A stretch of DNA of 64,000 nucleotides, from the sequence record OP745617. One strand, 5' to 3'. Source of the stretch: Escherichia phage F13. The notes beneath the pieces are model-generated. The model searched no databases, was not told the DNA's origin, and saw nothing but the letters and a program-made list of their open reading frames with translations. Shown in pieces: positions 1 through 61,807 of this stretch (its first letter is position 1; every line of letters starts with the position of its first letter). A program made the translations under genes and the position numbers.

Positions 1-102
1 GGACTCTCCAAAGAAGAGTTCAGCAGCATTGCCGAAGCAAAGGCATGGCTAAAGGCATTCTACAAGGCCAATCCTAAATTTTATCCAACTAAGGGTGCAT
101 AA
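1..102 (+). CDS. 3' end of upstream gene (partial, hypothetical protein)
   Basis: Open frame from window edge (…GLSKEEFSSIAEAKAWLKAFYKANPKFYPTKGA*) ending at TAA 100-102, overlapping ATG 102 of the next gene. Confidence 0.4.
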   Translation, partial: GLSKEEFSSIAEAKAWLKAFYKANPKFYPTKGA

Positions 103-320
103 TGACCGATAAACAATACGCAGTCGGGCAACGTGACATCGAGCAACTCGACGAGGGCGGTTATTATACACGCCACATCTATGCTATGACTCAAGAAGGA
201 CTTTACAGCAAGTCGGACATCGCCGCTGAACTGGCCCATCGCGACTTGCAAATTGATCTTCTCAAGATAGAAGTGCAGAACTTACGAAACACCCTGTTAA
301 ACACCTGGAGCTTAAAATGA
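102..320 (+). CDS. hypothetical protein (72 aa)
   Basis: ATG start overlapping upstream stop; stop overlaps next gene start (ATGA at 317-320), typical phage translational coupling. Confidence 0.5.
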   Translation: MTDKQYAVGQRDIEQLDEGGYYTRHIYAMTQEGLYSKSDIAAELAHRDLQIDLLKIEVQNLRNTLLNTWSLK

Positions 321-742
321 TACAGCGTTACGACCTGACATATGATGTGGCATCGGACGATTTCGCCGTCACTCCCGTTCCAGAAAGTCATGAAGGACGT
401 TTTGTTGCATATGAGGACTATGAATCACTGCTCAAGCTTAATGAGTCGCTAACAAAAGAGATTGAGCAATACCACGAGCGCATCAAAGTCGCTGAAGATG
501 TTATCAAGCTTTTTAGCGAGGCTGTTGAGAAATACAAGGAGCGCAACGTACCGATTAAGGAGGAAGCGTGGACCGTGTGGCTTGGTGGTGAGAATCCTGC
601 ACCTGGCGAGATTGTTGAATACAAGCTGCGCAATGGAGGTGATAAAGTATTGTCGAGACTTTCTGACCATCTTCACTGGGGTCATATAGGAGCACTCAAA
701 GGCAGCGACATCATTGCTTATCGGGTCGTTAAGGAGGGGTGA
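317..742 (+). CDS. hypothetical protein (141 aa)
   Basis: ORF coupled to neighbours by ATGA overlaps at both ends. Confidence 0.55.
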   Translation: MIQRYDLTYDVASDDFAVTPVPESHEGRFVAYEDYESLLKLNESLTKEIEQYHERIKVAEDVIKLFSEAVEKYKERNVPIKEEAWTVWLGGENPAPGEIVEYKLRNGGDKVLSRLSDHLHWGHIGALKGSDIIAYRVVKEG

Positions 743-1275
743 TGGGTAACGATGCAGGATGGGGCAAGCCGCGATACTCAAAACTTGCCCACTACTTTGA
801 CGACGGCGAGCAAATCAGCTTGTGCGGTAAATTCAACAAAGGCAATACAGAGTTGACCGATGCTCAAGAAATGGAATCAAGTCTGACAATTGGTGATTGC
901 TCTAAGTGCAGAAAGGCATTATATGAGTTATTGACTCTAAGGGGATTGAAAGCGGCAAAATCAAGGGATGAATGGGTCATCAACGTCTGTGAAGGGAATC
1001 CAGAATTGATGGATGAATTGCTGAAAACAGATGCCGTTAATGCCATTTTCAAAAGGCATTATAAAACTTGTATGCGTTACAAGATGAATGATGATATTAT
1101 TTTTATGGTATTATCTTATTCAAGGAGCACAATGGACGTCAAAAAGCTTCGACAATATCGCCACAAGGTCATGTGTGAATTGCGCCGTTTAGGAGTTATT
1201 GTGGATAATAATGTCATTAAAACGGAGTTAAAGAAGCGTGATAAAAGGAATGGTGACTGGAAGGTCAGCGGATAA
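739..1275 (+). CDS. hypothetical protein (178 aa), Cys pairs suggest possible zinc binding
   Basis: ORF with CGKF…CSKC spacing; last gene before the AT-rich element at 1.54-1.99 kb. Confidence 0.5.
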   Translation: MMGNDAGWGKPRYSKLAHYFDDGEQISLCGKFNKGNTELTDAQEMESSLTIGDCSKCRKALYELLTLRGLKAAKSRDEWVINVCEGNPELMDELLKTDAVNAIFKRHYKTCMRYKMNDDIIFMVLSYSRSTMDVKKLRQYRHKVMCELRRLGVIVDNNVIKTELKKRDKRNGDWKVSG

Positions 1276-1539
1276 ATAAACACTGTTTACGTGTTTTGAA
1301 GAATGGAATGTGTGCAATGGGTCGCTTTATGCGGCCTTTTGTCGTTTGGGTCATGTTTTGCTATGGAATAATTATGAGGTTGTGTTTTATTTATTAATTG
1401 TGCGGAAATATTTAGAAATATATATAAACAGGATTGTTAATATTTTAATAGTTTATGGCTATTGGTCCGTGGTGTTTGTTAGATTCTATCTATGGATTGG
1501 ATTTTCTTGGGTCGTGAAACGTGGTTTTGAACACATTTG

Positions 1540-1990
1540 ATACGCCTAAAATACGGTTAAAAATTAAGCGTATCATGGCTGCAGGCCGCGCCGTTCCTGG
1601 ATTCCTCTTTTCCAAATTGGTACACCCTTACGTCATGATACGTCATGGTTTTTTATCCGTATCAGTGTACAACCCTTGCCGCGCCTGGCTTGTACATTAA
1701 TCTTACGGATGATACGGATAAAACTGAGCATCGTTATATATAGAATTCGAAAAATTAATTAACTCCATTTTAAAAACATTTATATTAATTTTTTTCATAT
1801 CCTCATACTTATGTTAATTTATATATTTAACGTATCATCCGTAAGATATAAGTAAAAACAAAGACTTGCGGCAATACGGATGATACGTCATGATACGCTT
1901 CAACCAGCCAGCAGCGGCTAAGTCGTTGATTTGCATAACAAGCGGCAAAAGGGATGGATTTCTTTTATACGTATCAAACAGTACACCACG
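1540..1990. repeat. Composite element A: AT-rich core (about 1735-1830) flanked by inverted repeats aatcttacggatgatacgg (1699-1718) and ccgtatcatccgtaagat (1831-1847), plus extra GGATGATACG-type copies (1629-1665, 1873-1898)
   Basis: Read directly; homologous to element B at 18055-18345 (shared aatcttacggatgatacgga and tatata-gaattc-aaa-ttaatt core). Confidence 0.8.
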
Positions 1991-2062
1991 CACCACGGTC
2001 CGTTATCCATTCAGCAATATGATTTGTGTACGTTTATAGCCATAATGAACATCAATCTGCAC

Positions 2063-2091
2063 TTGAATATAATGTCCATCCATTGTATAAT
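2063..2091 (+). promoter_or_regulatory. sigma70-like promoter with extended -10 (TTGAAT-N17-TGTATAAT) upstream of the TerS-like gene
   Basis: Hexamers and spacing read from sequence; the transcribed leader would contain two AATTTGCACTATG motifs. Confidence 0.4.
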
Positions 2092-2111
2092 TCACACTAT
2101 TAATTTGCACT

Positions 2112-2600
2112 ATGGGATTTTGCACTATGAGTCAAGATTATGTAGCGATGCCTGAAGACTTTGAAGACCCGCGATTCGCAGAGCACAATCAGGCTTTATT
2201 CGATGAGTTCATTGACCTTGTTATTCAGGGTCATGACATGCGCGCAGCTTTTGCACTAGTATTTGGAATGGAAGTTGCAACGGATAACTACACTGGCCAG
2301 CGAATCCTTTGCACGCAACGCAATCCATACTACAAGATGCGCTTCAAAAAGCGTATGGAAGAGATGCCACTCAAGGATTTGTGGAGCGTAAAAGGTGCAA
2401 TTCACAATTTGGTTAAGCTTGTTCGTGATCCAGAAGTCGCGGCGTCAGCCAAGCTTAATGCTATTCGTGAACTGAATATCATCTACGGCATCACGATGAT
2501 TGATGAAAACGGCAATAGTAAAATGGGCCGTTCCATGGACGATTTCTACAAGGATTTTGGAGAGGCGGCCAAAGAAGGTGAGCAATTCTCCCGCCACTAG
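2112..2600 (+). CDS. terminase small subunit-like DNA-binding protein (possible start at 2127)
   Basis: About 160 aa; NQALFDEFIDLVIQGHDMRAAFALVFGM and C-terminal AKLNAIRELNIIYGI resemble TerS (Terminase_2-type) segments; recognised from memory only. Confidence 0.4.
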   Translation: MGFCTMSQDYVAMPEDFEDPRFAEHNQALFDEFIDLVIQGHDMRAAFALVFGMEVATDNYTGQRILCTQRNPYYKMRFKKRMEEMPLKDLWSVKGAIHNLVKLVRDPEVAASAKLNAIRELNIIYGITMIDENGNSKMGRSMDDFYKDFGEAAKEGEQFSRH

Positions 2601-2619
2601 CCAATTTGCACTATAAAAC

Positions 2620-2654
2620 GGCCCTAGAACACATTTTCTCCAATTCTAGGGCCA
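2620..2654. terminator. Hairpin between convergent genes: perfect 10-bp stem GGCCCTAGAA/TTCTAGGGCC, 15-nt loop
   Basis: Inverted repeat read from sequence; no strong T-run, so terminator function is inferred from position. Confidence 0.4.
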
Positions 2655-2714
2655 TCGGTAATACGACGGGGAAGGTTACAAACATAAACGCGTTAGAAAG
2701 TGTATTATTATAAG

Positions 2715-2978
2715 TCATCTTTTAGTCACCTTACGTAACAATTTACGACCTTCAACCGTCCAATCGAACGACTCCACCAGCAGATTCGCACTATAACCTA
2801 AGACGATGCGTCCCTTCTCGTTATCGACCCGCCAACAAGTCTCGAATAGCATTCGATTTGCACTATTAACTATTGCCGCAACTCGCGTAGGATAAGCGCA
2901 ATTTGAACTATGGTCGTAAAGGGATAAGGTGCGACCACTTCCGATGGACAACGTAGCGATGAGAATGAGCGTATTCAT
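2715..2978 (-). CDS. doubtful ORF (87 aa) overlapping three copies of the AATTTGCACTAT motif
   Basis: Has a possible GGTGG RBS, but the motif copies inside suggest the region may be regulatory rather than coding. Confidence 0.2.
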   Translation of the reverse strand: MNTLILIATLSIGSGRTLSLYDHSSNCAYPTRVAAIVNSANRMLFETCWRVDNEKGRIVLGYSANLLVESFDWTVEGRKLLRKVTKR

Positions 2979-3028
2979 AAGCCACCAATTTGCACTATGA
3001 AAAGCGACCCCGAAGGGCCGCCATTCGA

Positions 3029-3655
3029 TTAGATAATCTGGAAGGTATAGGATTTGTTGCCGAACTCAAAGTTCAAGCGCCCAGCTTCCTTAAGCTTCAT
3101 GCGGAAGCGAATGTGCTTGCTATCCGGCAAGCCCAGCACGGCGAACGCTACGCGGACCGATTTGAACTCGCCTACACCCTCGACCATAACGCCGTTACGG
3201 GTGAGACGCTTTTGCGCCACTTCCTTATTATCCCAACTTTTTGCAATACCTTCGCTATTCGAACGGCGATGGGAAGGAGTTCCATTTTGCACTACGCAAT
3301 TTGCACTATCGTTTAGACCGCTCTTAACGAAGGCTTCATACTCTTCGTCGGTCATCGCGTCGAGTTCTTCCTGGGTCGGCTCGGCCTTTTTAACGACCGC
3401 ACGCGCCTTATGCGTTTTTACATCGCTGGACACTTCCTCGCGCGACTTCGCTTCGGGGATGGGCGATTCGTTGGACGGCTCATCGAGCGCGTTTAAGGAC
3501 TCGATTAACGCGATTACGCGAGTCTCGGCGGTACGGCGGTCCGCAAATTTCTTAATCGGCTTCGAACCGGAATTTGCATTATAAAATGCAACGAGGTCGG
3601 CGGTCTTAGTTGCGATAACGTCGCCGCTAGTCGAGAAACGATTTAAGCTAACCAT
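3029..3655 (-). CDS. hypothetical protein (208 aa)
   Basis: AGGAG RBS upstream of ATG at 3655; contains two tandem motif copies on the opposite strand and the TTTGCATT-N4-AATGCAAA palindrome near its 5' end. Confidence 0.6.
   Translation of the reverse strand: MVSLNRFSTSGDVIATKTADLVAFYNANSGSKPIKKFADRRTAETRVIALIESLNALDEPSNESPIPEAKSREEVSSDVKTHKARAVVKKAEPTQEELDAMTDEEYEAFVKSGLNDSANCVVQNGTPSHRRSNSEGIAKSWDNKEVAQKRLTRNGVMVEGVGEFKSVRVAFAVLGLPDSKHIRFRMKLKEAGRLNFEFGNKSYTFQII
3573..3592. promoter_or_regulatory. Palindromic operator-like site TTTGCATT-ATAA-AATGCAAA
   Basis: Perfect 8-bp inverted arms with 4-bp spacer; a dyad version of the AATTTGCA motif. Confidence 0.35.
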
Positions 3656-3735
3656 AATGAACTCCTATTTGTTAGGGCGCTAGGCGCGAAAGAATTTTAT
3701 TAAAGCGCCGCGCACGACGCTCTAAAAATCCTCTC

Positions 3736-4020
3736 TTACGCTTCGACGAGGGAGAAGGTCTCAAATTCTTCTTCGCCCATAACGAGTAAGATGTTACCGA
3801 TTTCGACCGCTTCGAAGAAGTATCCGTTAACGTTTACTTCGAAGGCTTCGCGGTCCGATTCCGGTAACGCCGCGTAAAGTTTAAAAGCCTCGGCGACCGT
3901 TACCCCACCCGCCTCGATGGTCTGGTCTACGTTCGCGGCGTAGACTTCGGATAAAATTTGTTTTACGCCGTAGTTCTCGACGATAGCGTTACGGATGGAA
4001 GAAACGTTAAGAATAGCCAT
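3736..4020 (-). CDS. small early protein, paralog family member A (94 aa)
   Basis: AGGAG RBS; preceded on the minus strand by the conserved promoter/hairpin cassette; MAILNVSSIR…EVYAANVD…VNGYFFEAVEIG aligns with the 4958-5248 product. Confidence 0.6.
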   Translation of the reverse strand: MAILNVSSIRNAIVENYGVKQILSEVYAANVDQTIEAGGVTVAEAFKLYAALPESDREAFEVNVNGYFFEAVEIGNILLVMGEEEFETFSLVEA

Positions 4021-4088
4021 TTTAAACTCCTAGTTGGGAGAGGCGTTAACGACCTATTCGCTAACTCATCCCGTCCCGATATGAGTAC

Positions 4089-4116
4089 ATTATAATATAG
4101 TGTAGAAAAAAGTAAA
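4089..4116 (-). promoter_or_regulatory. sigma70-like promoter (TTTACT-N16-TATAAT) of the conserved early cassette, minus strand
   Basis: Reverse complement of 4021-4128 is nearly identical to the plus-strand cassettes at 4548-4655 and 4851-4957. Confidence 0.5.
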
Positions 4117-4160
4117 GCACTTTTTCGATAAAAATGCGATAAATTATTTTATCTTTTTTC

Positions 4161-4188
4161 TTTACTTCTTCGTACACTCGCGTATACT
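4161..4188 (+). promoter_or_regulatory. sigma70-like promoter (TTTACT-N16-TATACT), diverged copy of the early cassette, divergent to the minus promoter
   Basis: CTTTACTTCTTCGTACACT shared with the other cassettes; followed by a GGGC…GCCC hairpin and a GGGAG RBS. Confidence 0.45.
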
Positions 4189-4244
4189 TGTTTATATCGA
4201 GACGGGCGATGGCCCTTCCTTCTACTAGCATCGGGAGCTTTATT

Positions 4245-4547
4245 ATGACTACTTTAATCTCTTCCATCCTTACTTACGACGAAGACCGTTTAACCGTTCG
4301 CTCTCTTATCGCCGCCGTTAACGCCGAACTAGAATCTAGCGCCATTAAGGTCCGCGCGGTTGCCTTCGTCGGTCTTTCCTTCGACGATATCAAGTACGCC
4401 GAACGTAGCGCCATCCGCTTCGCGAAGACCGACGACGAAGCCGTTACCCTTATCGAGACGGTTACTCCGCGCGGCGAAACGTTAATTATCGTCGAGTATA
4501 TCGACGTAGAAGGCGATAAGGCTTATAAATATTTTATCGCAAAATAA
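4245..4547 (+). CDS. small early protein, paralog family member B (100 aa)
   Basis: ATG at 4245 with GGGAG RBS (the track's 4188 start is a TTG inside the -10 element); N-terminus MTTLISSI resembles the paralogs; 3' two-thirds lies in the tandem duplication. Confidence 0.6.
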   Translation: MTTLISSILTYDEDRLTVRSLIAAVNAELESSAIKVRAVAFVGLSFDDIKYAERSAIRFAKTDDEAVTLIETVTPRGETLIIVEYIDVEGDKAYKYFIAK

Positions 4548-4558
4548 CGAAAAAGTGC

Positions 4559-4587
4559 TTTACTTCTTAGTACACTAAGACTATAAT
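4559..4587 (+). promoter_or_regulatory. sigma70-like promoter TTTACT-N17-TATAAT (cassette copy 1)
   Basis: Near-consensus -10 and 17-bp spacer; followed by the 5' UTR hairpin at 4610-4630 and AGGAG at 4644-4648. Confidence 0.55.
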
Positions 4588-4609
4588 GTTTTATATCGAG
4601 AGGGGATGA

Positions 4610-4630
4610 GGTAGCGAATAGGTCGCTACC
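4610..4630 (+). ncRNA. Conserved 5' UTR stem-loop (GGTAGCGA-ATAGG-TCGCTACC)
   Basis: Perfect 8-bp stem; the minus-strand copy (GTTAGCGA/TCGTTAAC) keeps pairing through a compensatory U-A and a G-U wobble. Confidence 0.5.
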
Positions 4631-4655
4631 CTCCCGACTAACTAGGAGAATATTA

Positions 4656-4850
4656 CGCGCGGTTGCCTTCGTCGGTCTTTCCTTCGACGATATCAAGTAC
4701 GCCGAACGTAGCGCCATCCGCTTCGCGAAGACCGACGACGAAGCCGTTACCCTTATCGAGACGGTTACTCCGCGCGGCGAAACGTTAATTATCGTCGAGT
4801 ATATCGACGTAGAAGGCGATAAGGCTTATAAATATTTTATCGCAAAATAA
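4656..4850 (+). pseudogene. Duplicated 3' fragment of gene 4245-4547 lacking a start codon
   Basis: Second repeat unit encodes RAVAFVGLSF…KYFIAK in frame, but the position matching the ATG of gene 4958 reads ACG (4655-4657). Confidence 0.45.
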
Positions 4851-4861
4851 CGAAAAAGTGC

Positions 4862-4890
4862 TTTACTTCTTAGTACACTAAGACTATAAT
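4862..4890 (+). promoter_or_regulatory. sigma70-like promoter TTTACT-N17-TATAAT (cassette copy 2, drives gene 4958-5248)
   Basis: Identical to copy 1 (offset 303 bp); hairpin at 4913-4933, AGGAG at 4947-4951. Confidence 0.55.
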
Positions 4891-4957
4891 GTTTTATATC
4901 GAGAGGGGATGAGGTAGCGAATAGGTCGCTACCCTCCCGACTAACTAGGAGAATATT

Positions 4958-5248
4958 ATGATCACTTTATCCGCTATCCGTGCCGCTCGCGTCGAAACTT
5001 CCGAAAACTCTAACGTATTTGGCGAAACCTTAGAGAGCGTTTATCTCTCTAACGTTGACGCGATTATCGAGTCTATTTATGAGCCGATCAACTTCCTCGA
5101 CCTTTACAAGTATCGCGATGAGGACATCGTGTCCTACCGCGTAACGATTAACGGCTTCGTTTATACGATTACCGAAATCGGCGGCGAATATCTCGCTGTA
5201 CCGCAACTCGGCGGCGAAGTAACTTACTTTAAAATCGTAAGCCTTTAA
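4958..5248 (+). CDS. small early protein, paralog family member C (96 aa)
   Basis: ATG with AGGAG RBS; clear similarity to the 3736-4020 product (IR-A-VE, VY-NVD-IE, NG-xxE-EIG). Confidence 0.6.
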   Translation: MITLSAIRAARVETSENSNVFGETLESVYLSNVDAIIESIYEPINFLDLYKYRDEDIVSYRVTINGFVYTITEIGGEYLAVPQLGGEVTYFKIVSL

Positions 5249-5259
5249 GGAGAAGAAAA

Positions 5260-5469
5260 ATGATTAATATGAATAACTCTCTTAACGCGCGCGCCCATCG
5301 CACCGCCGTCATCGATATGTTCCGTGAGCTTAAGGACTTATGCGATAATATGAACGCGATGTTATCCATCGGCGGCTGGGGATACGAAGAAGAAGTTAAA
5401 TATGCGGTTATGCGTCGCCGTCGCGATAACGTCCTTGGGCAAATTAAACGCGCCGGATTATTCCTTTAA
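5260..5469 (+). CDS. hypothetical small protein (69 aa, basic)
   Basis: AAGGAG RBS 8 nt upstream of ATG; followed by an intrinsic terminator. Confidence 0.55.
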   Translation: MINMNNSLNARAHRTAVIDMFRELKDLCDNMNAMLSIGGWGYEEEVKYAVMRRRRDNVLGQIKRAGLFL

Positions 5470-5495
5470 TTATAATCAACCACCGTTACTAATAG

Positions 5496-5517
5496 GCCGC
5501 GCTTAGTCGCGGCTTTT
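5496..5517 (+). terminator. Rho-independent terminator (GCCGCG-cttagt-CGCGGC followed by TTTTCTT)
   Basis: GC stem plus T-run directly after stop of gene 5260-5469. Confidence 0.6.
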
Positions 5518-5638
5518 CTTCGTCCCTATCTCGGTGCGCTCCTACGCGAAAACTCCTTTATCCTTCCCTTCGTCGTCGCATAATCTTCGTCGATATGCGC
5601 CTTAGTTCGCATAACAGGTATTACGTTAAATGGAGAAC

Positions 5639-5715
5639 ATCGCGTAAGTCCTTGTTTTATATAGACACCTATATCGGACCGTTAGGGCGGGTCGCGTAAG
5701 TCGTTGTTTTATAAA
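5639..5715. repeat. Direct repeat pair (A/G)TCGCGTAAGTC(C/G)TTGTTTTATA (5639-5663 and 5691-5715)
   Basis: Two 25-nt near-identical copies 52 bp apart in a 700-bp ORF-free region. Confidence 0.6.
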
Positions 5716-5838
5716 GGCGCAAAACTTTCCCTTCGTTCCGAACTAAAACGAGGAATATGCCGACCCTTCGTCCGAAAATAGTACGCATGCGAAATTACAT
5801 GCATCTAGAATAATCCCCACAGATATTATCCTACACGC

Positions 5839-5903
5839 AATCATTCGCTTTCGAATCATTATGCTTCATATTATTATGCGTCGAATCATTCGCTTTCGAA
5901 TTG
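5839..5903. repeat. Direct repeat pair ATCATTCGCTTTCGAAT (5840-5856 and 5885-5901)
   Basis: Read directly; each unit contains a TTCGAA palindrome. Confidence 0.6.
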
Positions 5904-5991
5904 TAACGCTGGAAACTGTAACGGCGATTGATTATTGCGTTCGTGTGGTTTTTATGGCATGGGTCTTTTGGTGCGTTTTGCTACTTGATGG

Positions 5992-6103
5992 AATTTGCGG
6001 TACACTAATCAAAATACGACACATTTAGTCTACTAACTTTTCAAAGAAAAAGTCCTGGACAGTACCGTACTATTTTGTACCCACAGGAAATTTGCAGTAC
6101 ACT
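5992..6103 (+). repeat. Variant motif pair AATTTGC(G/A)GTACACT (5992-6006 and 6088-6103)
   Basis: Shares AATTTGC with the 2.1-3.6 kb motif family and GTACACT with the early promoter cassette. Confidence 0.5.
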
Positions 6104-6183
6104 CCTGCGCGCGGCAGGCAAAATAAAGGGCCGCACCAAGCGACCCACGATTCACGATTCACGGTTAAAGCAACATCCACCCA

Positions 6184-6564
6184 CTATTCACTCTTATGGG
6201 CATCACCAAATCCATCAGCAATCTGGCTGATCAACGACTCAATGGACACAGTTTTACCAATTGATCGAGCGGTTATGGCGAGCATATTATCAATCAAACC
6301 ATGATTGACACAATACTCTGGAGATTTAGAATCATCTTCAGAACAACCAAAAAGCTGGTCGCGCAGACTTTCAAGAGAACGCTCAATATTTTCCAACTTC
6401 TCTTCTAAATCGGATTGGCGACGTAAAACCCATGTTAAGTCTCGGTTGCCGACTTCCAACCCATCAGAATAGCAAGGTGGAGCGTCAATTTTGATGCTGG
6501 AACCAAAAGCAGTGCCGCTGCCTTTAGTATAAGTATGGCTCATAGAATCATTTTTATTTGACAT
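6184..6564 (-). CDS. hypothetical protein (126 aa from ATG 6564)
   Basis: Last gene of the minus-strand block; internal ATG with weak AAGG RBS chosen over the track start. Confidence 0.45.
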   Translation of the reverse strand: MSNKNDSMSHTYTKGSGTAFGSSIKIDAPPCYSDGLEVGNRDLTWVLRRQSDLEEKLENIERSLESLRDQLFGCSEDDSKSPEYCVNHGLIDNMLAITARSIGKTVSIESLISQIADGFGDAHKSE

Positions 6565-6661
6565 ATCATTACCTTTAATATTTGGGTGATTAACAATAAC
6601 TATAATAAAGCCGCATAGCGCGGCATTCAAATCGATTTATTAATTGTGACGATTGGATTCA

Positions 6662-6856
6662 TCAATCGATACCAACTGAGCCGATGTGCTGAAAGAACTC
6701 TGAATAAACTTCCTTCCAGTACTTACGCGCTGCTTTCTGGGCTTGTCCTTTGCGCTTGAAGCTTTTGCCTTGAAAGATGAAACGGTCGCTTGTCGCGCGA
6801 TACTCCACCACACCTTCCAGCCATTGTAAGAATGCTACTGATTCATTTTTATTCAT
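6662..6856 (-). CDS. hypothetical small basic protein (64 aa)
   Basis: GAGGT RBS 5 nt upstream of ATG. Confidence 0.5.
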   Translation of the reverse strand: MNKNESVAFLQWLEGVVEYRATSDRFIFQGKSFKRKGQAQKAARKYWKEVYSEFFQHIGSVGID

Positions 6857-6863
6857 TTCAACC

Positions 6864-7259
6864 TCAATATTTTAATAAGAAAGCACCCAACCAACTTTCC
6901 TCAACCTCGCGGCCAGTAGCCACACGGTCGGTCTTGGCTATGGGTCTGGATTCGCCGCAGGGCAACCCGTCTTGTAGTTGTGTACTATTGCCAATTCTCA
7001 CCAGAACCTTTCCATCAGGGTCGATATAAGCGCGACAACCCATGATTTCGAGTCGTTGTAGACACTGGCGAATCGTTTTCAGCTTCTCACCGGACCGGAT
7101 AGAGCGCGGTCGCGACCGCTGACCGTTCTTATTTACTGTACGCTTGAAGACCGGAATATCATTGGTGCGTTGCGGCTTGGGTCGGTAGTAGGCTTCTTCG
7201 CCAGGAGTCGCACCTGGCGTCAATTCGCGCTTGAGCGCCTTTTCAATATCAATGATCAT
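6864..7259 (-). CDS. hypothetical protein (131 aa from ATG 7259)
   Basis: Start placed at MIIDIEK, just downstream of the stop of the small upstream ORF (coupling); the track's N-terminal extension overlaps other ORFs. Confidence 0.45.
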   Translation of the reverse strand: MIIDIEKALKRELTPGATPGEEAYYRPKPQRTNDIPVFKRTVNKNGQRSRPRSIRSGEKLKTIRQCLQRLEIMGCRAYIDPDGKVLVRIGNSTQLQDGLPCGESRPIAKTDRVATGREVEESWLGAFLLKY

Positions 7260-7261
7260 AA

Positions 7262-7360
7262 TTATGCCGCAGCAGCGTGAATTATTGCGTAAACAATTCC
7301 TAACAGGGCGACAACGCAAACAGTGCCCCAAAATGCAAAGCGTCGTGCCTCTTTATCCAT
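7262..7360 (-). CDS. possible small membrane peptide (32 aa, MDKEARRFAFWGTVCVVALLGIVYAIIHAAAA)
   Basis: Single hydrophobic helix; GGTGG-like RBS; sits between two coupled genes. Confidence 0.25.
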   Translation of the reverse strand: MDKEARRFAFWGTVCVVALLGIVYAIIHAAAA

Positions 7361-7640
7361 TGTCCACCGCCCCAATATCCATGAAATTAAAAACCAATTT
7401 CGCCATTTCATCTTGTGAAATGACATTATAGTGCTTAGGCAAATCGCTTTCTGATAATACCTTCTGGGCTTCTTCTTTTGTCTCAAAGAGAGGGATGCAC
7501 CAGTTTACTGCTTCACCAGATTCATTACTGTCTACTTGCTTTAAAAAGACCAAGCGGTTATCTTCAGGATCAATGCCGCAGATGACGTATTTTGGCAATG
7601 CTTTTGCTTTTTGAGTCTTATCAATATCTTCAAATTTCAT
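7353..7640 (-). CDS. hypothetical protein (95 aa from ATG 7640)
   Basis: GAGGTG RBS upstream of ATG 7640. Confidence 0.5.
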   Translation of the reverse strand: MKFEDIDKTQKAKALPKYVICGIDPEDNRLVFLKQVDSNESGEAVNWCIPLFETKEEAQKVLSESDLPKHYNVISQDEMAKLVFNFMDIGAVDNG

Positions 7641-7721
7641 AATACACCTCACTTGTTAACGTATAATGAGTATAACTTAATAGCGCATAAAGTAAAGGCG
7701 CTTTTCAGCGCCTTGAGTGAA

Positions 7722-10031
7722 TTATTTTGCTGATTTCAGCGCGGCTATCTCTGCCTTGAGTTCACCTATCTGATCCATGAGTGCAAGAATAGCCTCGTGG
7801 TGCAATGCCGCTGCCACTCCGTAAGTGTCGACTGATTTGACATCCTTGACCACGGTCCCATCAGCCAGTTCCATATCACCTGAAACAGAAACGGCTTCTG
7901 GGAAATCAACCTCAACATCTTGAGCCACGAATCCAAAACCTACTTTCGCGCCGTCAGTTTTCAATCGCCATGACACGCCATTAATCCTTTTCATCTTGGT
8001 CAATGGGTCTTGAATCTTGACAATCTCATCCTTGATTCTGACGTCTGAAGAAGTACCCCAACCGCCAGCGCAAACAGCATTACCTGCTTGCAGGAATTGG
8101 AAATACTTGTTGGTGCCTACACCGCCAGCAGTAGTGGTCATTATGGTCACATCGCCATTACGCTCAGAATATACCCGACCATACGTTGCTGTGTTGGCAC
8201 TGTTCTTAAAATCGATGAACGATTGGTTGTTGGTGTTTCCAATGAACGTCGCTTGACCGCCGCGAGTTATCAACTGGCCTTTTGCATCAACGTTCCCAGA
8301 GCTGGTGATCAAGTTATTTGGCACAAGCAAGTTGCCGTTGTCGACAAAATCGAATGCCTGGCTGGCGGCAGTCGTCAAATTGGTAACGGTCAATCGCATG
8401 TAATAAGCGCCACCGATAACAGCGCGAATGCGCATGCGACCTTCAGCCTCAACAGCAGTCCCCACTCGATACTCCGACATGACGCTGCCGCCGTCAGCGG
8501 TCGTGCCTGGACCTGGCATTGCCGTATCGCCGTTTATAACAGACCATTGCGTATTCGCCGCTGTGAATCCACCGGATGCACGAATCACCCAAACGCCTGA
8601 AAAGTTGCGCGGCAATACTTCATCTGTTGCAAGGTTGTTACGACCGTAAGCTGGGCTTGAGTTAGAAGCTCTTAGCGCAACGCTTCCCAAAGAGTTCGCA
8701 CCAGAACTTAAAAGCGAAACACCTCTTACATATCGCGGAATGGTGAATCCTTCTCCATTGATGAATGCGCCGCCAGCACCTGCGACAACCGTTCCTGATG
8801 CTGGTTCACTTGCAGGGCCGGACCCGTGGAAGTTGATGTTGCCAGTGATGTTTGGCAGGAAGGATTCCATTATCATTCCGTCATTTGACGAGTTGCCGCC
8901 ATCGCCACGGGCAAAAAGTGCACGAACACTTCCTGTCTGAACGCCGTTACGGTCTGGAACACGGAATGTTGTTGTTCCGTTGCCTAAAGAATACTTTCCG
9001 CGCTTCAGCGGGTCAGCCAACCAATCTGCATCAGCAATAGGCGTAAGCATTTGCGCATAAGCCCAAAGCTCAGGCCAGTCTGCACGGTTAAGCAATTGTC
9101 CGTCGGCAACAACTTCATACGACTGAATATAGGCGCGACTGTCGCGCAGGTGAAAGTCACCAACGCCATAGTTCATTACGCCGTTCATGCTTGGGCCAAC
9201 GGTGCCAGTATTTACTAAGTTCTCAACCCAACGCTTCGTCGCGGCATCATAATCATTGACGGGGTCGCCAGCCAGTGGTGTTGAGCCTTGTGGACGAATA
9301 TTCAACCATGCTTGCGCATTGTCTGCTGATCCTGTGCCGCCCATGGAAGTTGGAACGATGCTCTGATCAGCAACAGGGCCAAATCCAAAGGCATCTTTCA
9401 TTCCCTGAATAGTCGTTTGACCTGTGCCGCCGTTTGCAATTGGAATTGTGCTTTGTGAACTATAAATTTGCGCCCAAGGCGACCATGAAGATGTTTCAGC
9501 ATTGTACCTTCTTTGGTACAAGTTATTTGAGTTGAATGTGGTGTATCTTTGAATGCAACTTTCCAAAGATATGGCAGTCTGCAGGACTTCCAATATCCCA
9601 GCTTCCAAGGCTACTGGATAGTTGAGGGATGTCTGCGCAGCAGCATTTGAATATTGGTAATATTGCCCAAACCAAGTTCCAGTCAAAGAGTTCAGATTTA
9701 TCCCCGACGGCAAAAGTCCAAAATTCCTGACAGTATTGGTCAAAGATGCGGCAGTTGTTCGAATGGAAAGCATGTCGCCTGCCGCCCATGCGCGCGCTGC
9801 AGTTCCTTCCTGTGCACGCTGCACAGTCAGGACGTTCCCAACCACGGCTGTTACAGTGATGATTTCAAATTGGAGGCCTGTTGCAGCGTCGACGATTGTC
9901 GCCACTACACGCTCGTTTGCACCCAAGGTCGGAAAGCCCGACCCTGAGCGGATTGTGATTGTGGTGTCTGAAGTCGTCGCTGGCTGAGCGAGCGCGACCT
10001 CAAAGTTGTTTTTGAATATTAGCCTTGGCAT
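7722..10031 (-). CDS. tail fibre/tail spike protein with C-terminal intramolecular chaperone (S74-type) domain
   Basis: 769 aa, Gly/Thr/Ser/Asn-rich; C-terminus has SDVRIKDEI…DGAKVGFGFVAQDVEVDFPEAV, typical of the auto-cleaving chaperone domain of phage fibres; GAGGA RBS. Confidence 0.7.
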   Translation of the reverse strand: MPRLIFKNNFEVALAQPATTSDTTITIRSGSGFPTLGANERVVATIVDAATGLQFEIITVTAVVGNVLTVQRAQEGTAARAWAAGDMLSIRTTAASLTNTVRNFGLLPSGINLNSLTGTWFGQYYQYSNAAAQTSLNYPVALEAGILEVLQTAISLESCIQRYTTFNSNNLYQRRYNAETSSWSPWAQIYSSQSTIPIANGGTGQTTIQGMKDAFGFGPVADQSIVPTSMGGTGSADNAQAWLNIRPQGSTPLAGDPVNDYDAATKRWVENLVNTGTVGPSMNGVMNYGVGDFHLRDSRAYIQSYEVVADGQLLNRADWPELWAYAQMLTPIADADWLADPLKRGKYSLGNGTTTFRVPDRNGVQTGSVRALFARGDGGNSSNDGMIMESFLPNITGNINFHGSGPASEPASGTVVAGAGGAFINGEGFTIPRYVRGVSLLSSGANSLGSVALRASNSSPAYGRNNLATDEVLPRNFSGVWVIRASGGFTAANTQWSVINGDTAMPGPGTTADGGSVMSEYRVGTAVEAEGRMRIRAVIGGAYYMRLTVTNLTTAASQAFDFVDNGNLLVPNNLITSSGNVDAKGQLITRGGQATFIGNTNNQSFIDFKNSANTATYGRVYSERNGDVTIMTTTAGGVGTNKYFQFLQAGNAVCAGGWGTSSDVRIKDEIVKIQDPLTKMKRINGVSWRLKTDGAKVGFGFVAQDVEVDFPEAVSVSGDMELADGTVVKDVKSVDTYGVAAALHHEAILALMDQIGELKAEIAALKSAK

Positions 10032-60136: not shown

Positions 60137-61807
60137 ATGTCAATTAATAATGACAATCTTCCAGAGGATACAGGTGATGAATTTGGTGCAATCTTTGACG
60201 AAATTCAAGATGCAGGCGTTTCGGAAGAAATGCAGGCAGCAGAGCAGCAAGGCACCAGAGCTAAAATCAGCCTTCAACATAAAGCCGTTGAAAAAGATTC
60301 AGAGCGCATGGAATGCTACGGTGAAGAAGACTTGGTTGAAAGAGCACGCTTGCTCGCCTCACTTCAGGTAATCAAGTTCCCTCACTACAAGCCGACCAAA
60401 GATGACTTCGTTCTACAGGCAGACCGGACGAGTGACATGAACCGTTATGCGGTTTTCGACGCGTTGTTTGATAAGGGAAGTGGCGTTGTTCCATTCCCTC
60501 ACAAAGATACTTTTCGTGGGCGCTTAGTCGACCATCGCGGCGAAACATTCACCGACCGTACTTTGGAAGTCACAGAGATAGTTGCCGCTGTCGACGCAGC
60601 AGGATTGTCCAACCCAAACTCACGTCAGGTCGCTCAATCCTATAAGGAATGGGCCATGCGTTATCAGCGCGACGACCTGATGGACTTCTTCTACAAGAAG
60701 CTGCCTGAATGGGACGGTACTGCGCGCATCGAGAAATACCTTATCGAGCTATTCCGACCGTTCGATACAGAGTTAAACCGACAAATCGGTGTGTATTTTT
60801 GGCTATCGCTCTACAACCGCCTGACCAACCCTGGCTGTCAAGCGCCAATTTCTATCGCGCTCATCGGCGGCCAGAACGCAGGGAAGAGTTATTTTAGCAA
60901 GCTGCTTTGCGAAGCTATTATGAACGACCGCCACGCAACACCGATTCCGTTGAACTTAGCCGCGCAAAACTTCAACCCGTTCTTGCGAGCTATTACGGGT
61001 CGCTCAATTATCGCGAACGTTGGCGAGATGACAGGCTTTAAAAAGGCCGACATCGAAAACATGAAAGCATTCCTGACTAAGACGGAAGATGACCTGGACT
61101 TCAAATTTGAAGATACGCAGGTTAAACCACGCCAGTGGATTGCGATAATGGACGGCAACGAATACGCAGGTATGCAGCGTGATGACACGGGCAACCGTCG
61201 TGTGTATCCTATCTTTGTTGGCCAACTCGCCGACAAGGACGGGCAACCGAACTGGTCGAAAGACTTCCAAGCTGACCTTTCCACTTTGAAAGAAGACGTT
61301 TGGCAATTGATGGCTGAGTGCGCTGCTTGGATGGAGAAGCACGGCGAAGCAGGTTACAACGCGTTTGTTGGTGAAACATCTCGCATGCTCACTGAGTTTA
61401 GTAAGAACGAAATGGAACGTGCACGCGGCGTTATTCGTGATGAGATGGTTGACAACGACCTTGTTGAAGTCGTCATTACCGCGCCTTATGACCGACATCA
61501 CAGCGGACGCTGGCACATAACCAGTGGTGCTATTGCTATGGGATTCAGAGCGAAGTGCGGCAAGTCGCCTTTCTCTCGTACCCTTGCGCCGCACATGTCG
61601 AAGCTTGGTTTTGAGCCTGCAACCTATCGCAACCAGCGCGGTTACTTTACGCCGCTGATTAAGAATGAAGCAGGAGAATACATTTCTGATTTGATGACCA
61701 TCTTAGCGTATCTTATCCGCGATGAGTCTGACCCTGAAGATATTGAATTCTTGAAGAAGGTTATTGAGCGTAAACGTTCTTTGGGAAGAGATAAGGATGA
61801 ATTCTGA
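60137..61807 (+). CDS. VirE/D5-like primase-associated SF3 helicase
   Basis: AGGAGG RBS; P-loop ISIALIGGQNAGKSYFSKL in the C-terminal half; 556 aa. Confidence 0.55.
   Translation: MSINNDNLPEDTGDEFGAIFDEIQDAGVSEEMQAAEQQGTRAKISLQHKAVEKDSERMECYGEEDLVERARLLASLQVIKFPHYKPTKDDFVLQADRTSDMNRYAVFDALFDKGSGVVPFPHKDTFRGRLVDHRGETFTDRTLEVTEIVAAVDAAGLSNPNSRQVAQSYKEWAMRYQRDDLMDFFYKKLPEWDGTARIEKYLIELFRPFDTELNRQIGVYFWLSLYNRLTNPGCQAPISIALIGGQNAGKSYFSKLLCEAIMNDRHATPIPLNLAAQNFNPFLRAITGRSIIANVGEMTGFKKADIENMKAFLTKTEDDLDFKFEDTQVKPRQWIAIMDGNEYAGMQRDDTGNRRVYPIFVGQLADKDGQPNWSKDFQADLSTLKEDVWQLMAECAAWMEKHGEAGYNAFVGETSRMLTEFSKNEMERARGVIRDEMVDNDLVEVVITAPYDRHHSGRWHITSGAIAMGFRAKCGKSPFSRTLAPHMSKLGFEPATYRNQRGYFTPLIKNEAGEYISDLMTILAYLIRDESDPEDIEFLKKVIERKRSLGRDKDEF

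Follow-up and report, generated by a model that had tools for sequence, protein, structure and literature searches.

Arrays of short protein-binding words are known from phage termini, where they occur as pac and cos sites, the DnaA boxes of T5, clusters of Chi sites and the repeats of T7. The pac and cosB sites of P22, SPP1, P1, lambda and HK97 lie in or beside the gene for the small terminase (TerS). Here we analyzed a 64,000-nucleotide stretch of Escherichia phage F13 (sequence record OP745617), hereafter the window, whose coordinates are used throughout; the 4.8 kb of the 68 kb genome outside the window were checked separately. In this DNA, about ten copies of a ATTTGCACTAT-type word with the core GCACTA are spread over 1.2-1.5 kb around the TerS gene, on a single strand; the phage is a Wifcevirus, and the array falls in the left portion of its long direct terminal repeat (DTR).

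Each of the described systems resembles this array in part. Pac/cosB-type sites (the R sites of lambda cosB, the pac sites of P22 and SPP1, the P1 pac hexamers and HK97 cos) are also repeated cis sites by the TerS gene and near the cut; their orientation sets the direction of packaging, and one set is present per genome unit in concatemers. These sites comprise 1-7 elements within about 200 bp, whereas the array has about ten one-way copies that run through three genes over 1.2-1.5 kb, at about 320-1540 bp from the cut. Origin iterons, such as the P4 ori/crr octamers and plasmid iterons, share with the array the multiple copies of a short asymmetric protein-binding word, but the array lacks regular spacing, phasing and an adjacent initiator, and is embedded in coding sequence. 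The SRL and SRR elements of T7 are likewise oriented short repeats by the ends of a DTR phage, with a role that has never been fully explained. They were reportedly described in the 1983 T7 sequence of Dunn and Studier as regular tandem heptamers in non-coding DNA outside the 160 bp repeat; by contrast, the copies described here are dispersed, are 11-12 bp long and lie within a 3.9 kb repeat. In T5, the injection-stop region of the long terminal repeat has eight DnaA boxes (Davison, bioRxiv 10.1101/866236). Like the array, these are conserved asymmetric protein-binding boxes (about 9 bp) with a proposed function in the long DTR of a virulent coliphage, but they are paired in inverted repeats in non-coding DNA, whereas the array is unidirectional, mostly coding and free of DnaA boxes. 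Finally, the terminal Chi clusters of LLS-type lambdoids and P1 (PMC12315714) are short oriented motifs near one end that ignore gene orientation; Chi is host-specific, whereas GCACTA is specific to a phage clade and unrelated in sequence. A full-text literature search for the motif string returned only unrelated primer sequences, and the motif, its strict one-way layout across coding DNA and its conservation across genera appear to be undescribed.

We counted the motif on both strands of the window. Allowing at most one mismatch, ATTTGCACTAT has nine matches, all on the plus strand and all within 2103-3582, against an expectation for 64 kb of 1.75 (s.d. 1.47, largest 7); none of 100 shuffles reached nine. 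The 8-mer TTGCACTA occurs eight times on the plus strand and never on the minus strand, so that its reverse complement is not equally frequent, and there are no other occurrences in the window or in the remaining 4.8 kb. Between 1828 and 4027, GCACTA is present nine times on the plus strand and is absent from the minus strand (expected 0.29, P = 3e-11, order-2 background). At two mismatches there is no excess in the window as a whole (24 matches vs 27.3 by chance); half of these 24 fall in 2090-3582, and those 12 are all on the plus strand. The copies lie after the TerS promoter (2090, 2103 and 2118), in TerS (2249), after its stop codon (2604), between genes (2988) and in two minus-strand genes, with 6-7 of 12 within open reading frames (ORFs) and 5-6 of 12 antisense to the gene in which they lie. 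The array begins about 320 bp from the left physical end of the genome, and its copies span about 320-1820 bp from that end if the copy at 3572 is included; this copy may be fortuitous, because it overlaps a conserved F-Y-N-A peptide and is missing from several relatives. The GCACTA array is thus a real, oriented DNA-level feature confined to the repeat.

These counts stand beside a preliminary description of the same DNA, which had reported at least nine plus-strand copies between 2102 and 3309; the coordinates and sequences are as it described. It had placed two copies in the TerS leader, where ATGs at 2112 and 2127 are indeed formed at the ends of the copies at 2103 and 2118, and two more in the minus-strand gene 3029-3655, where they start 14 bp apart and fall in two different frames of the gene strand (V-V-Q-N and D-S-A-N). 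Its view of a DNA-level signal blind to the direction of transcription agrees with the presence of copies in intergenic DNA, in one plus-strand gene and, in two frames, in two minus-strand genes. Some of its claims needed amendment. The minus-strand ORF that it considered doubtful does carry three copies (2715-2978) and is a real conserved gene, and the strand bias is not a property of the genome at large but of one local cluster within the terminal repeat, outside which the motif is absent.

The assignment of the DTR rests on close relatives. In this region the window matches Escherichia phage vB_EcoM_SP13 at 100% identity and about 25 further Wifcevirus myoviruses at 92-96%, and the GenBank records of SP13, Mansfield and WFC all start at window position 1767. 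The first 3899 bp of SP13 equal its last 3899 bp exactly, with boundaries that map to 1767 and 5968, and the Mansfield record gives a PhageTerm prediction of a DTR with the same start. The repeat measures 4202 bp in the window, since an additional 303 bp tandem duplication is added to the 3899 bp found in SP13. This duplication, which SP13 lacks, is exact (4353-4652 and 4656-4955; 300 nt unit, 100% identical) and covers the 3' part of gene 4245-4547 together with the next early promoter and its leader. The left physical end falls within an AT-rich stretch (1767-1830 is very AT-rich), and is followed from left to right by the TerS promoter, TerS, a hairpin, a leftward early-type operon and rightward early genes; the latter reach a terminator at about 5500, after which non-coding repeats occupy the remainder as far as the right boundary (5968). 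The preliminary description could not take into account that this DNA is a DTR, a fact that alters which functions are likely.

To analyze conservation, we compared seven lineages: Wifcevirus, the Pantoea phages Kyle (Kylevirus) and PA1, and four metagenomic contigs (L022, L023, L024 and L025). Within Wifcevirus the sites are positionally conserved, and copies that are degenerate in the window are perfect ATTTGCACTAT in relatives; this is not decisive, because the genomes are too similar. All six further lineages, with TerS proteins 41-69% identical, carry a one-orientation array of 7-14 copies at the same place. In Kyle (TerS 43% identical), whose record begins at its own 3603 bp DTR, GCACTA occurs 14 times on the plus strand at 477-1478 and not once on the minus strand there; in the whole Kyle genome, T[TC]GCACTA is present nine times in each DTR copy and is absent from both strands elsewhere. 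PA1 has 13 copies of GCACTA, and the four contigs (TerS 47-69% identical) have 10, 9, 7 and 11, one of them with seven additional copies of a variant, GTACTA, in unchanged flanks. Enrichment over the order-2 background was highly significant in both Pantoea phages (P = 2e-19 for Kyle, 3e-18 for PA1), and all copies and one-off variants in the compared lineages are on the TerS-sense strand.

A logo of 73 sites from the seven lineages reads R-A-T-Y-Y-G-C-A-C-T-A-Y, with information only at positions -5 to +6. No second conserved box was found within 12 bp on either side of these sites, where the flanks carry at most 0.22 bits per position. The array spans about -110 to +1180 from the TerS start in all seven lineages, and the 3' end of TerS carries a copy in every one. 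Other positions vary: pooled over the lineages, copies in the first 420 nt of TerS begin at 36, 51, 66, 120, 126, 219, 225, 270 and 294, and spacings range from 10 to 390 bp with no helical phase. As positions turn over while number and direction are kept, selection probably acts on the array itself at the DNA level. From sequence comparison, we regard as established a clade-wide, strictly one-way array of asymmetric 11-12 bp sites at the DNA level, kept in number and direction in seven lineages and restricted to the part of the terminal repeat next to TerS.

By contrast, no GCACTA array was found in four more distant relatives, Pbunavirus PS44, Serratia phage MyoSmar, Xanthomonas phage XcP1 and Burkholderia phage Maja, all of which have TerS homologues (28-42% identical) and the neighboring phrog_4730 gene. 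A search of these four for substitute arrays gave only weak or inconsistent candidates, except for Chi in MyoSmar. In a scan of IMG/VR for two close copies, true arrays appeared in Wifcevirus only among the matches listed, the others there being mostly chance or tandem repeats of 9, 15 or 42 bp, and single-protein homologue scans returned close relatives only. Two observations concern individual records. In the TerS zone of XcP1 (4867-6065), CCGCGTGC with at most one mismatch occurs six times on the TerS-sense strand and never on the other (P about 2e-8, uncorrected for multiple testing); this might be a host-specific oriented signal of the Chi type. The PS44 record (NC_028939.1) contains TerS and its neighbor twice, at 602-1171 and at 60998-61567 (about 61 kb, not the end). 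A Pbunavirus genome of 68.8 kbp was left out in the Banzai paper as a duplication or misassembly, and the PS44 record has a matching length.

The identity of gene 2127-2600 as TerS is secure. It matches the small terminase of phage E217 (PDB 7UXE) with E = 7e-34 in phmmer and E = 8e-65 in a profile search, and 7UXE is also its first-ranked Foldseek match (probability 1.00). TATAAT lies 25-45 bp upstream of TerS in all seven lineages, and TTGnnn-17-TATAAT could be read in four. A motif copy follows this -10 element by 2-3 bp in Wifcevirus, L022 and L025, and a variant copy does so in L023. Downstream of TerS there is a terminator-like hairpin at about 2620-2655, annotated as a terminator in phage WFC; together with converging transcription from the right, it implies that no single transcript carries all copies.

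We propose, with a probability of roughly 0.3, that the array consists of about ten asymmetric 11-12 bp cis sites on double-stranded DNA for a protein shared by the Wifcevirus/Kylevirus clade, most likely TerS, and that they serve packaging and processing of the DTR. We infer protein binding, the identity of the binder and the purpose alike. TerS rings or their helix-turn-helix domains would load on the sites, all of one orientation, along the 1.2-1.5 kb of the repeat nearest TerS, and the loaded TerS would mark the left part of the repeat on concatemers; the orientation of the sites would then direct terminase to cut at the nearby left boundary and to package. With copies 2-35 bp past the -10 element of the TerS promoter, the same protein could silence its own gene and block the converging early operon, so that autoregulation of TerS would be a by-product of the promoter-proximal copies.

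TerS is our best guess because its gene lies within the array in every lineage, the cut is nearby and the orientation of the sites could give the direction of packaging; in addition, fixed-end relatives have the array while headful relatives do not, and known pac and cosB sites lie by TerS genes. A single asymmetric logo of 11-12 bp fits one helix-turn-helix or winged-helix domain per site. Pbunavirus genomes are reported to be packaged by the headful mechanism, circularly permuted and without a DTR (PMC12390725). For E217, a Pbunavirus, TerS is reported to be a decamer and to show no appreciable DNA binding in vitro (PMC9611059). The array has about as many copies as this homologue has subunits, and headful packaging without an array, by a TerS with no appreciable binding, would fit a gain of sequence-specific recognition together with fixed ends. 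The proteins differ at residues 64-65, which are (Q/K/R)-R in all eight TerS sequences from array-bearing lineages and E-(S/F/A) in all four from array-less ones; in an AF2 model of TerS (pLDDT 74.5), these residues end helix 56-65, just before a basic helix.

Several points weigh against this proposal. The correlation at residues 64-65 is confounded by phylogeny, as the array-bearing lineages form one clade. The sites are irregularly distributed over more than 1.2 kb without helical phasing. Known TerS sites fall within about 200 bp of the cut, and the array, near both the TerS gene and the cut as pac and cos sites are, extends beyond that distance. MyoSmar has a DTR and a TerS homologue without a GCACTA array. 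The co-oriented cluster of Chi sites described below implies that RecBCD passes through this DNA, which is awkward if terminase covers it. Finally, as a candidate recognition site for terminase, the repeats at the left DTR boundary are no worse than GCACTA and may be better.

At the left boundary, direct repeats lie outside, followed by the AT-rich cut region, inverted copies 60-90 bp inside, TTGCGGCAA and more copies (1629-1897). This layout recurs at least partly in other lineages, with a repeat sequence that is specific to each (GATACGGAT, TTACGGATA, ATACGGAAG, AAACCGTT and others). The boundary repeats vary by lineage while GCACTA is invariant, and they follow the divergence of TerS more closely than the motif does. 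They are a candidate for the terminase recognition site or for a hairpin used in duplication of the repeat; an inverted repeat that keeps its symmetry as its sequence drifts could be a structural element in that duplication. In six lineages and in PS44, slightly varying forms of a TTGCGGCA(A)-like element are present some 100-170 bp inward of the boundary.

As a doubtful alternative, the array may be a set of operators for another conserved phage regulator, which would silence the TerS promoter and act as a roadblock to the leftward early operon. Copies overlap positions +1 to +35 of the sigma-70-like TerS promoter in four lineages, and others lie under the converging operon (2715-2978, 3029-3655 and 3736-4020), which starts at a promoter match at 4116-4089. 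A candidate regulator is present, as DTR gene 5260-5469 encodes a small protein that matches a PHROG family annotated as transcriptional regulator. Repressors, however, seldom need about ten strictly one-way sites across 1.2 kb of coding sequence. In the Kyle and PA1 loci read, tblastn gave no match to the phrog_10377 gene at E <= 1e-3, and the clade-specific proteins examined (present in Kyle, not in PS44; a list contaminated by shadow ORFs) included none with a recognizable DNA-binding domain.

We then considered an end-processing signal read by an end-tracking enzyme, either a Chi-like modulator or a polar barrier to a helicase-nuclease, acting with host Chi; degradation from the left end would thereby be turned into recombination between the two terminal repeats. 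The main support comes from real Chi clusters in the same DNA. On the minus strand of the TerS-proximal repeat, Chi occurs nine times in Kyle (255-1972), seven in PA1 (5861-7433), six in L023 (323-1824), five in L025 (411-1836), four in MyoSmar (5653-5993) and once in Wifcevirus, and no forward Chi is present in these stretches; the clusters thus have the direction to which RecBCD responds on entry from the left end. The nine Kyle sites fall within its first 2 kb, compared with six sites in the remaining 67 kb (P = 9e-16). The Chi sites and the GCACTA array are interleaved and co-oriented in Kyle, PA1, L023 and L025, and motif and Chi lie side by side where TerS ends in Kyle, PA1 and L023, as well as at 2774-2794 in the window. 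The motif is also end-proximal and strictly of one orientation, and terminal, oriented Chi clusters that support recombination-dependent growth have recently been documented in other phages (PMC12315714).

The likeness to Chi is one of layout only, in the single orientation and the clustering at an end; the motif is unrelated in sequence to GCTGGTGG, which excludes Chi itself. We know of no enterobacterial enzyme that reads the GCACTA motif. Chi reads on the minus strand and the motif on the plus strand, so that if the motif is read in single-stranded form, a different strand or polarity must be involved. L022, moreover, has ten copies of the motif and no Chi. We consider end processing unlikely. 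Slightly less likely still is the specific form in which the array is a clade-specific counterpart or partner of Chi, or a polar barrier, that would control with Chi how resection and recombination of the repeat lead to circular or concatemeric genomes.

In several lineages (Kyle 801-817, PA1 6445-6461, L023 899-915), TerS has the peptide S/L-H-Y-P-P-A in its disordered C-terminal tail. This peptide looks like a by-product of two DNA signals, because the underlying DNA is GCACTA-y-CCACCAGC, a motif copy joined to Chi.

Replication-origin iterons for a phage initiator or primase-helicase are an improbable explanation. The array does consist of repeated short asymmetric boxes beside the very AT-rich 1767-1830, these phages encode primase-helicase-type proteins, and the origin of phage P4 has 8 bp repeats. 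The sites, however, are 11-12 bp long, irregular and unphased across three coding genes, rather than regular tandem copies beside an initiator gene, and no such gene adjoins them. Candidate initiators are also present in array-less relatives, and in Pbunavirus the GC skew reaches its minima among the replication genes, away from TerS (PMC12390725). The motif is not a DnaA box (TTWTNCACA) either: it departs from this consensus at positions 1 and 9 and has an invariant G and TA that the consensus does not include, and no consensus DnaA box is present in the DTR, the only two in the window being at 1200 and 51433.

Strand-specific nicking sites in virion DNA, of the T5 or phiKMV type, are about as improbable as iterons. 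Known nick sites are scattered along the genome, unlike this layout of about ten sites packed into 1.2 kb, and no nickase candidate was identified. In favor of nicking, every copy is on one strand, and site-specific single-strand interruptions are reported for the long-DTR virulent coliphages T5 and BF23 (PMC10644984).

The alternative promoter class raised by the preliminary description, or a -10-like element at which host or phage RNA polymerase would pause, is the least probable. CACTAT agrees with a -10 hexamer in the A and T of the two key positions, and three copies follow the TerS promoter, but instead of a fixed spot upstream of many genes all copies occupy one 1.5 kb stretch of the 68 kb, most of them within or antisense to ORFs, and the absence of a second box or informative flank and of copies elsewhere argues against any promoter class, with the invariant G and the ATYY flank left unexplained. 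Inspection by eye for sigma-54 promoters, MotA boxes and extended -10 elements showed a misfit in spacing and invariant positions, and no partner box. A structured RNA was rejected, with no Rfam match at E <= 0.1 in window 1-8000, as was a protein-level repeat, since the copies fall in differing frames and strands and their positions vary between lineages.

The genes that share the repeat with TerS were also analyzed (Table 1). The product of gene 2715-2978 aligns across five lineages, and a homologue follows TerS directly in those array-bearing lineages that have a gene call at this place; the array-less loci compared yielded no homologue. Of the three motif copies in this gene, only that at 2856 is positionally conserved across the protein family. 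The protein is probably exported, given its signal-peptide-like N-terminus and conserved cysteines, and the same features rule it out as a reader of the motif. Gene 3029-3655 had no Pfam, NCBIfam or PDB match, a homologue search returned near-identical sequences only, and its single-sequence AF2 model (pLDDT 41) was of no use.

The preliminary description had counted two sequences at 5992 and 6088 (6089 here) as variants of the motif. Both exist, but they have no GCACTA core and lie outside the DTR; they belong to a separate conserved element outside the GCACTA family. The element approximates GAAATTYRC-N1-2-GTACACT(A)A and occurs just beyond the right boundary twice in Wifcevirus and twice in Kyle (3625-3645 and 3964-3984). 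PA1 also has it twice (about 9663 and 10124), at a comparable distance from TerS, its DTR boundary being unmapped. GTACACT is found in addition in the spacers of early promoters, TTTACT-N5-GTACACT-N5-TATAAT, at 4160, 4558 and 4861, and as the reverse complement at about 4098.

In many public assemblies, the TerS/phrog_4730 region forms a separate contig of 3.4-4.4 kb, about the size of the DTR (L024, 3983 bp; 0mImBSne, 3755 bp). Assembler breaks at the repeat boundaries would fit this, and such contigs could be mined to map the DTRs of uncultured relatives.

Table 1. Positions of the motif copies, signals and genes in the window.
Feature	Position	Strand	Remarks
Direct terminal repeat (DTR)	1767..5968	.	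4202 bp in the window; left physical end at 1767
Left-boundary inverted repeat, 27 nt	1690..1857	.	Arms 1690-1716 and 1831-1857, centered on cut site 1767; GATACGGAT-type repeats
Sigma-70-like promoter TTGAAT-17-TATAAT	2063..2091	+	Before TerS; consensus match, predicted
Core array zone	2090..3309	+	11 copies of R-A-T-Y-Y-G-C-A-C-T-A-Y, irregular spacing of 13-355 bp
Weak copy ATTCACACTAT	2090..2100	+	Overlaps the putative TerS promoter at the end of its -10 hexamer and at its +1 region
Perfect copy ATTTGCACTAT	2103..2113	+	TerS leader; kept in all Wifcevirus loci
Copy TTTTGCACTAT	2118..2128	+	Final AT with G2129 makes the TerS start codon 2127-2129; ATTTGCACTAT in relatives
TerS (small terminase) gene	2127..2600	+	Homology to PDB 7UXE; terminase small subunit in the Mansfield record
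Copy TTTTGCACTAG	2249..2259	+	Within TerS, codes F-A-L, frame GCA-CTA; copy at the equivalent position in L022
Perfect copy ATTTGCACTAT	2604..2614	+	4 bp past the TerS stop codon
Small-protein gene	2715..2978	-	Signal-peptide-like hydrophobic N-terminus, two invariant Cys, conserved CWR and FDW motifs
Single E. coli Chi site GCTGGTGG	2774..2781	-	Orientation active for RecBCD entering at the left end; 2-9 Chi sites of this orientation in the zone in sister lineages
Copy ATTCGCACTAT	2784..2794	+	In gene 2715-2978(-), 2 bp past the Chi reverse complement; perfect in relatives
Perfect copy ATTTGCACTAT	2856..2866	+	In gene 2715-2978(-), gene-strand reading N-S-A-N
Copy ATTTGAACTAT	2901..2911	+	In gene 2715-2978(-); perfect in 6/7 other Wifcevirus loci read, the exception being SP13
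Perfect copy ATTTGCACTAT	2988..2998	+	Intergenic, between two minus-strand genes
Conserved gene, phrog_4730 (unannotated family)	3029..3655	-	Adjoins TerS in several related genera, including array-less ones
Close pair TTTTGCACTAC (3285) and ATTTGCACTAT (3299)	3285..3309	+	Starts 14 bp apart, in gene 3029-3655(-)
Doubtful copy ATTTGCATTAT	3572..3582	+	Overlaps the conserved F-Y-N-A peptide of gene 3029-3655
Element AATTTGC(G/A)GTACACT, two copies	5992..6006 and 6089..6103	+	24 and 121 bp outside the right DTR boundary

To our knowledge, the recognition, cutting and duplication of the ends of long-DTR phages are poorly understood, and we know of no cis signals in Wifcevirus, Kylevirus or Pbunavirus. 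Recognition of DNA by TerS has been hard to demonstrate for most small terminases, and the array is a precise mutable target for such tests, given its roughly ten sites, single orientation and unvarying 6 bp core. Nature provides the comparison: the array is present in relatives with fixed ends and missing from headful ones, whose TerS is 41% identical. Together with the oriented Chi sites, the array makes the left repeat a compact model of injected linear phage DNA facing RecBCD. Members of Wifcevirus are candidate agents for therapy and for the biocontrol of E. coli O157, and related phages are in wide therapeutic use; knowledge of their packaging signals bears on the risk of transduction and on genome engineering.

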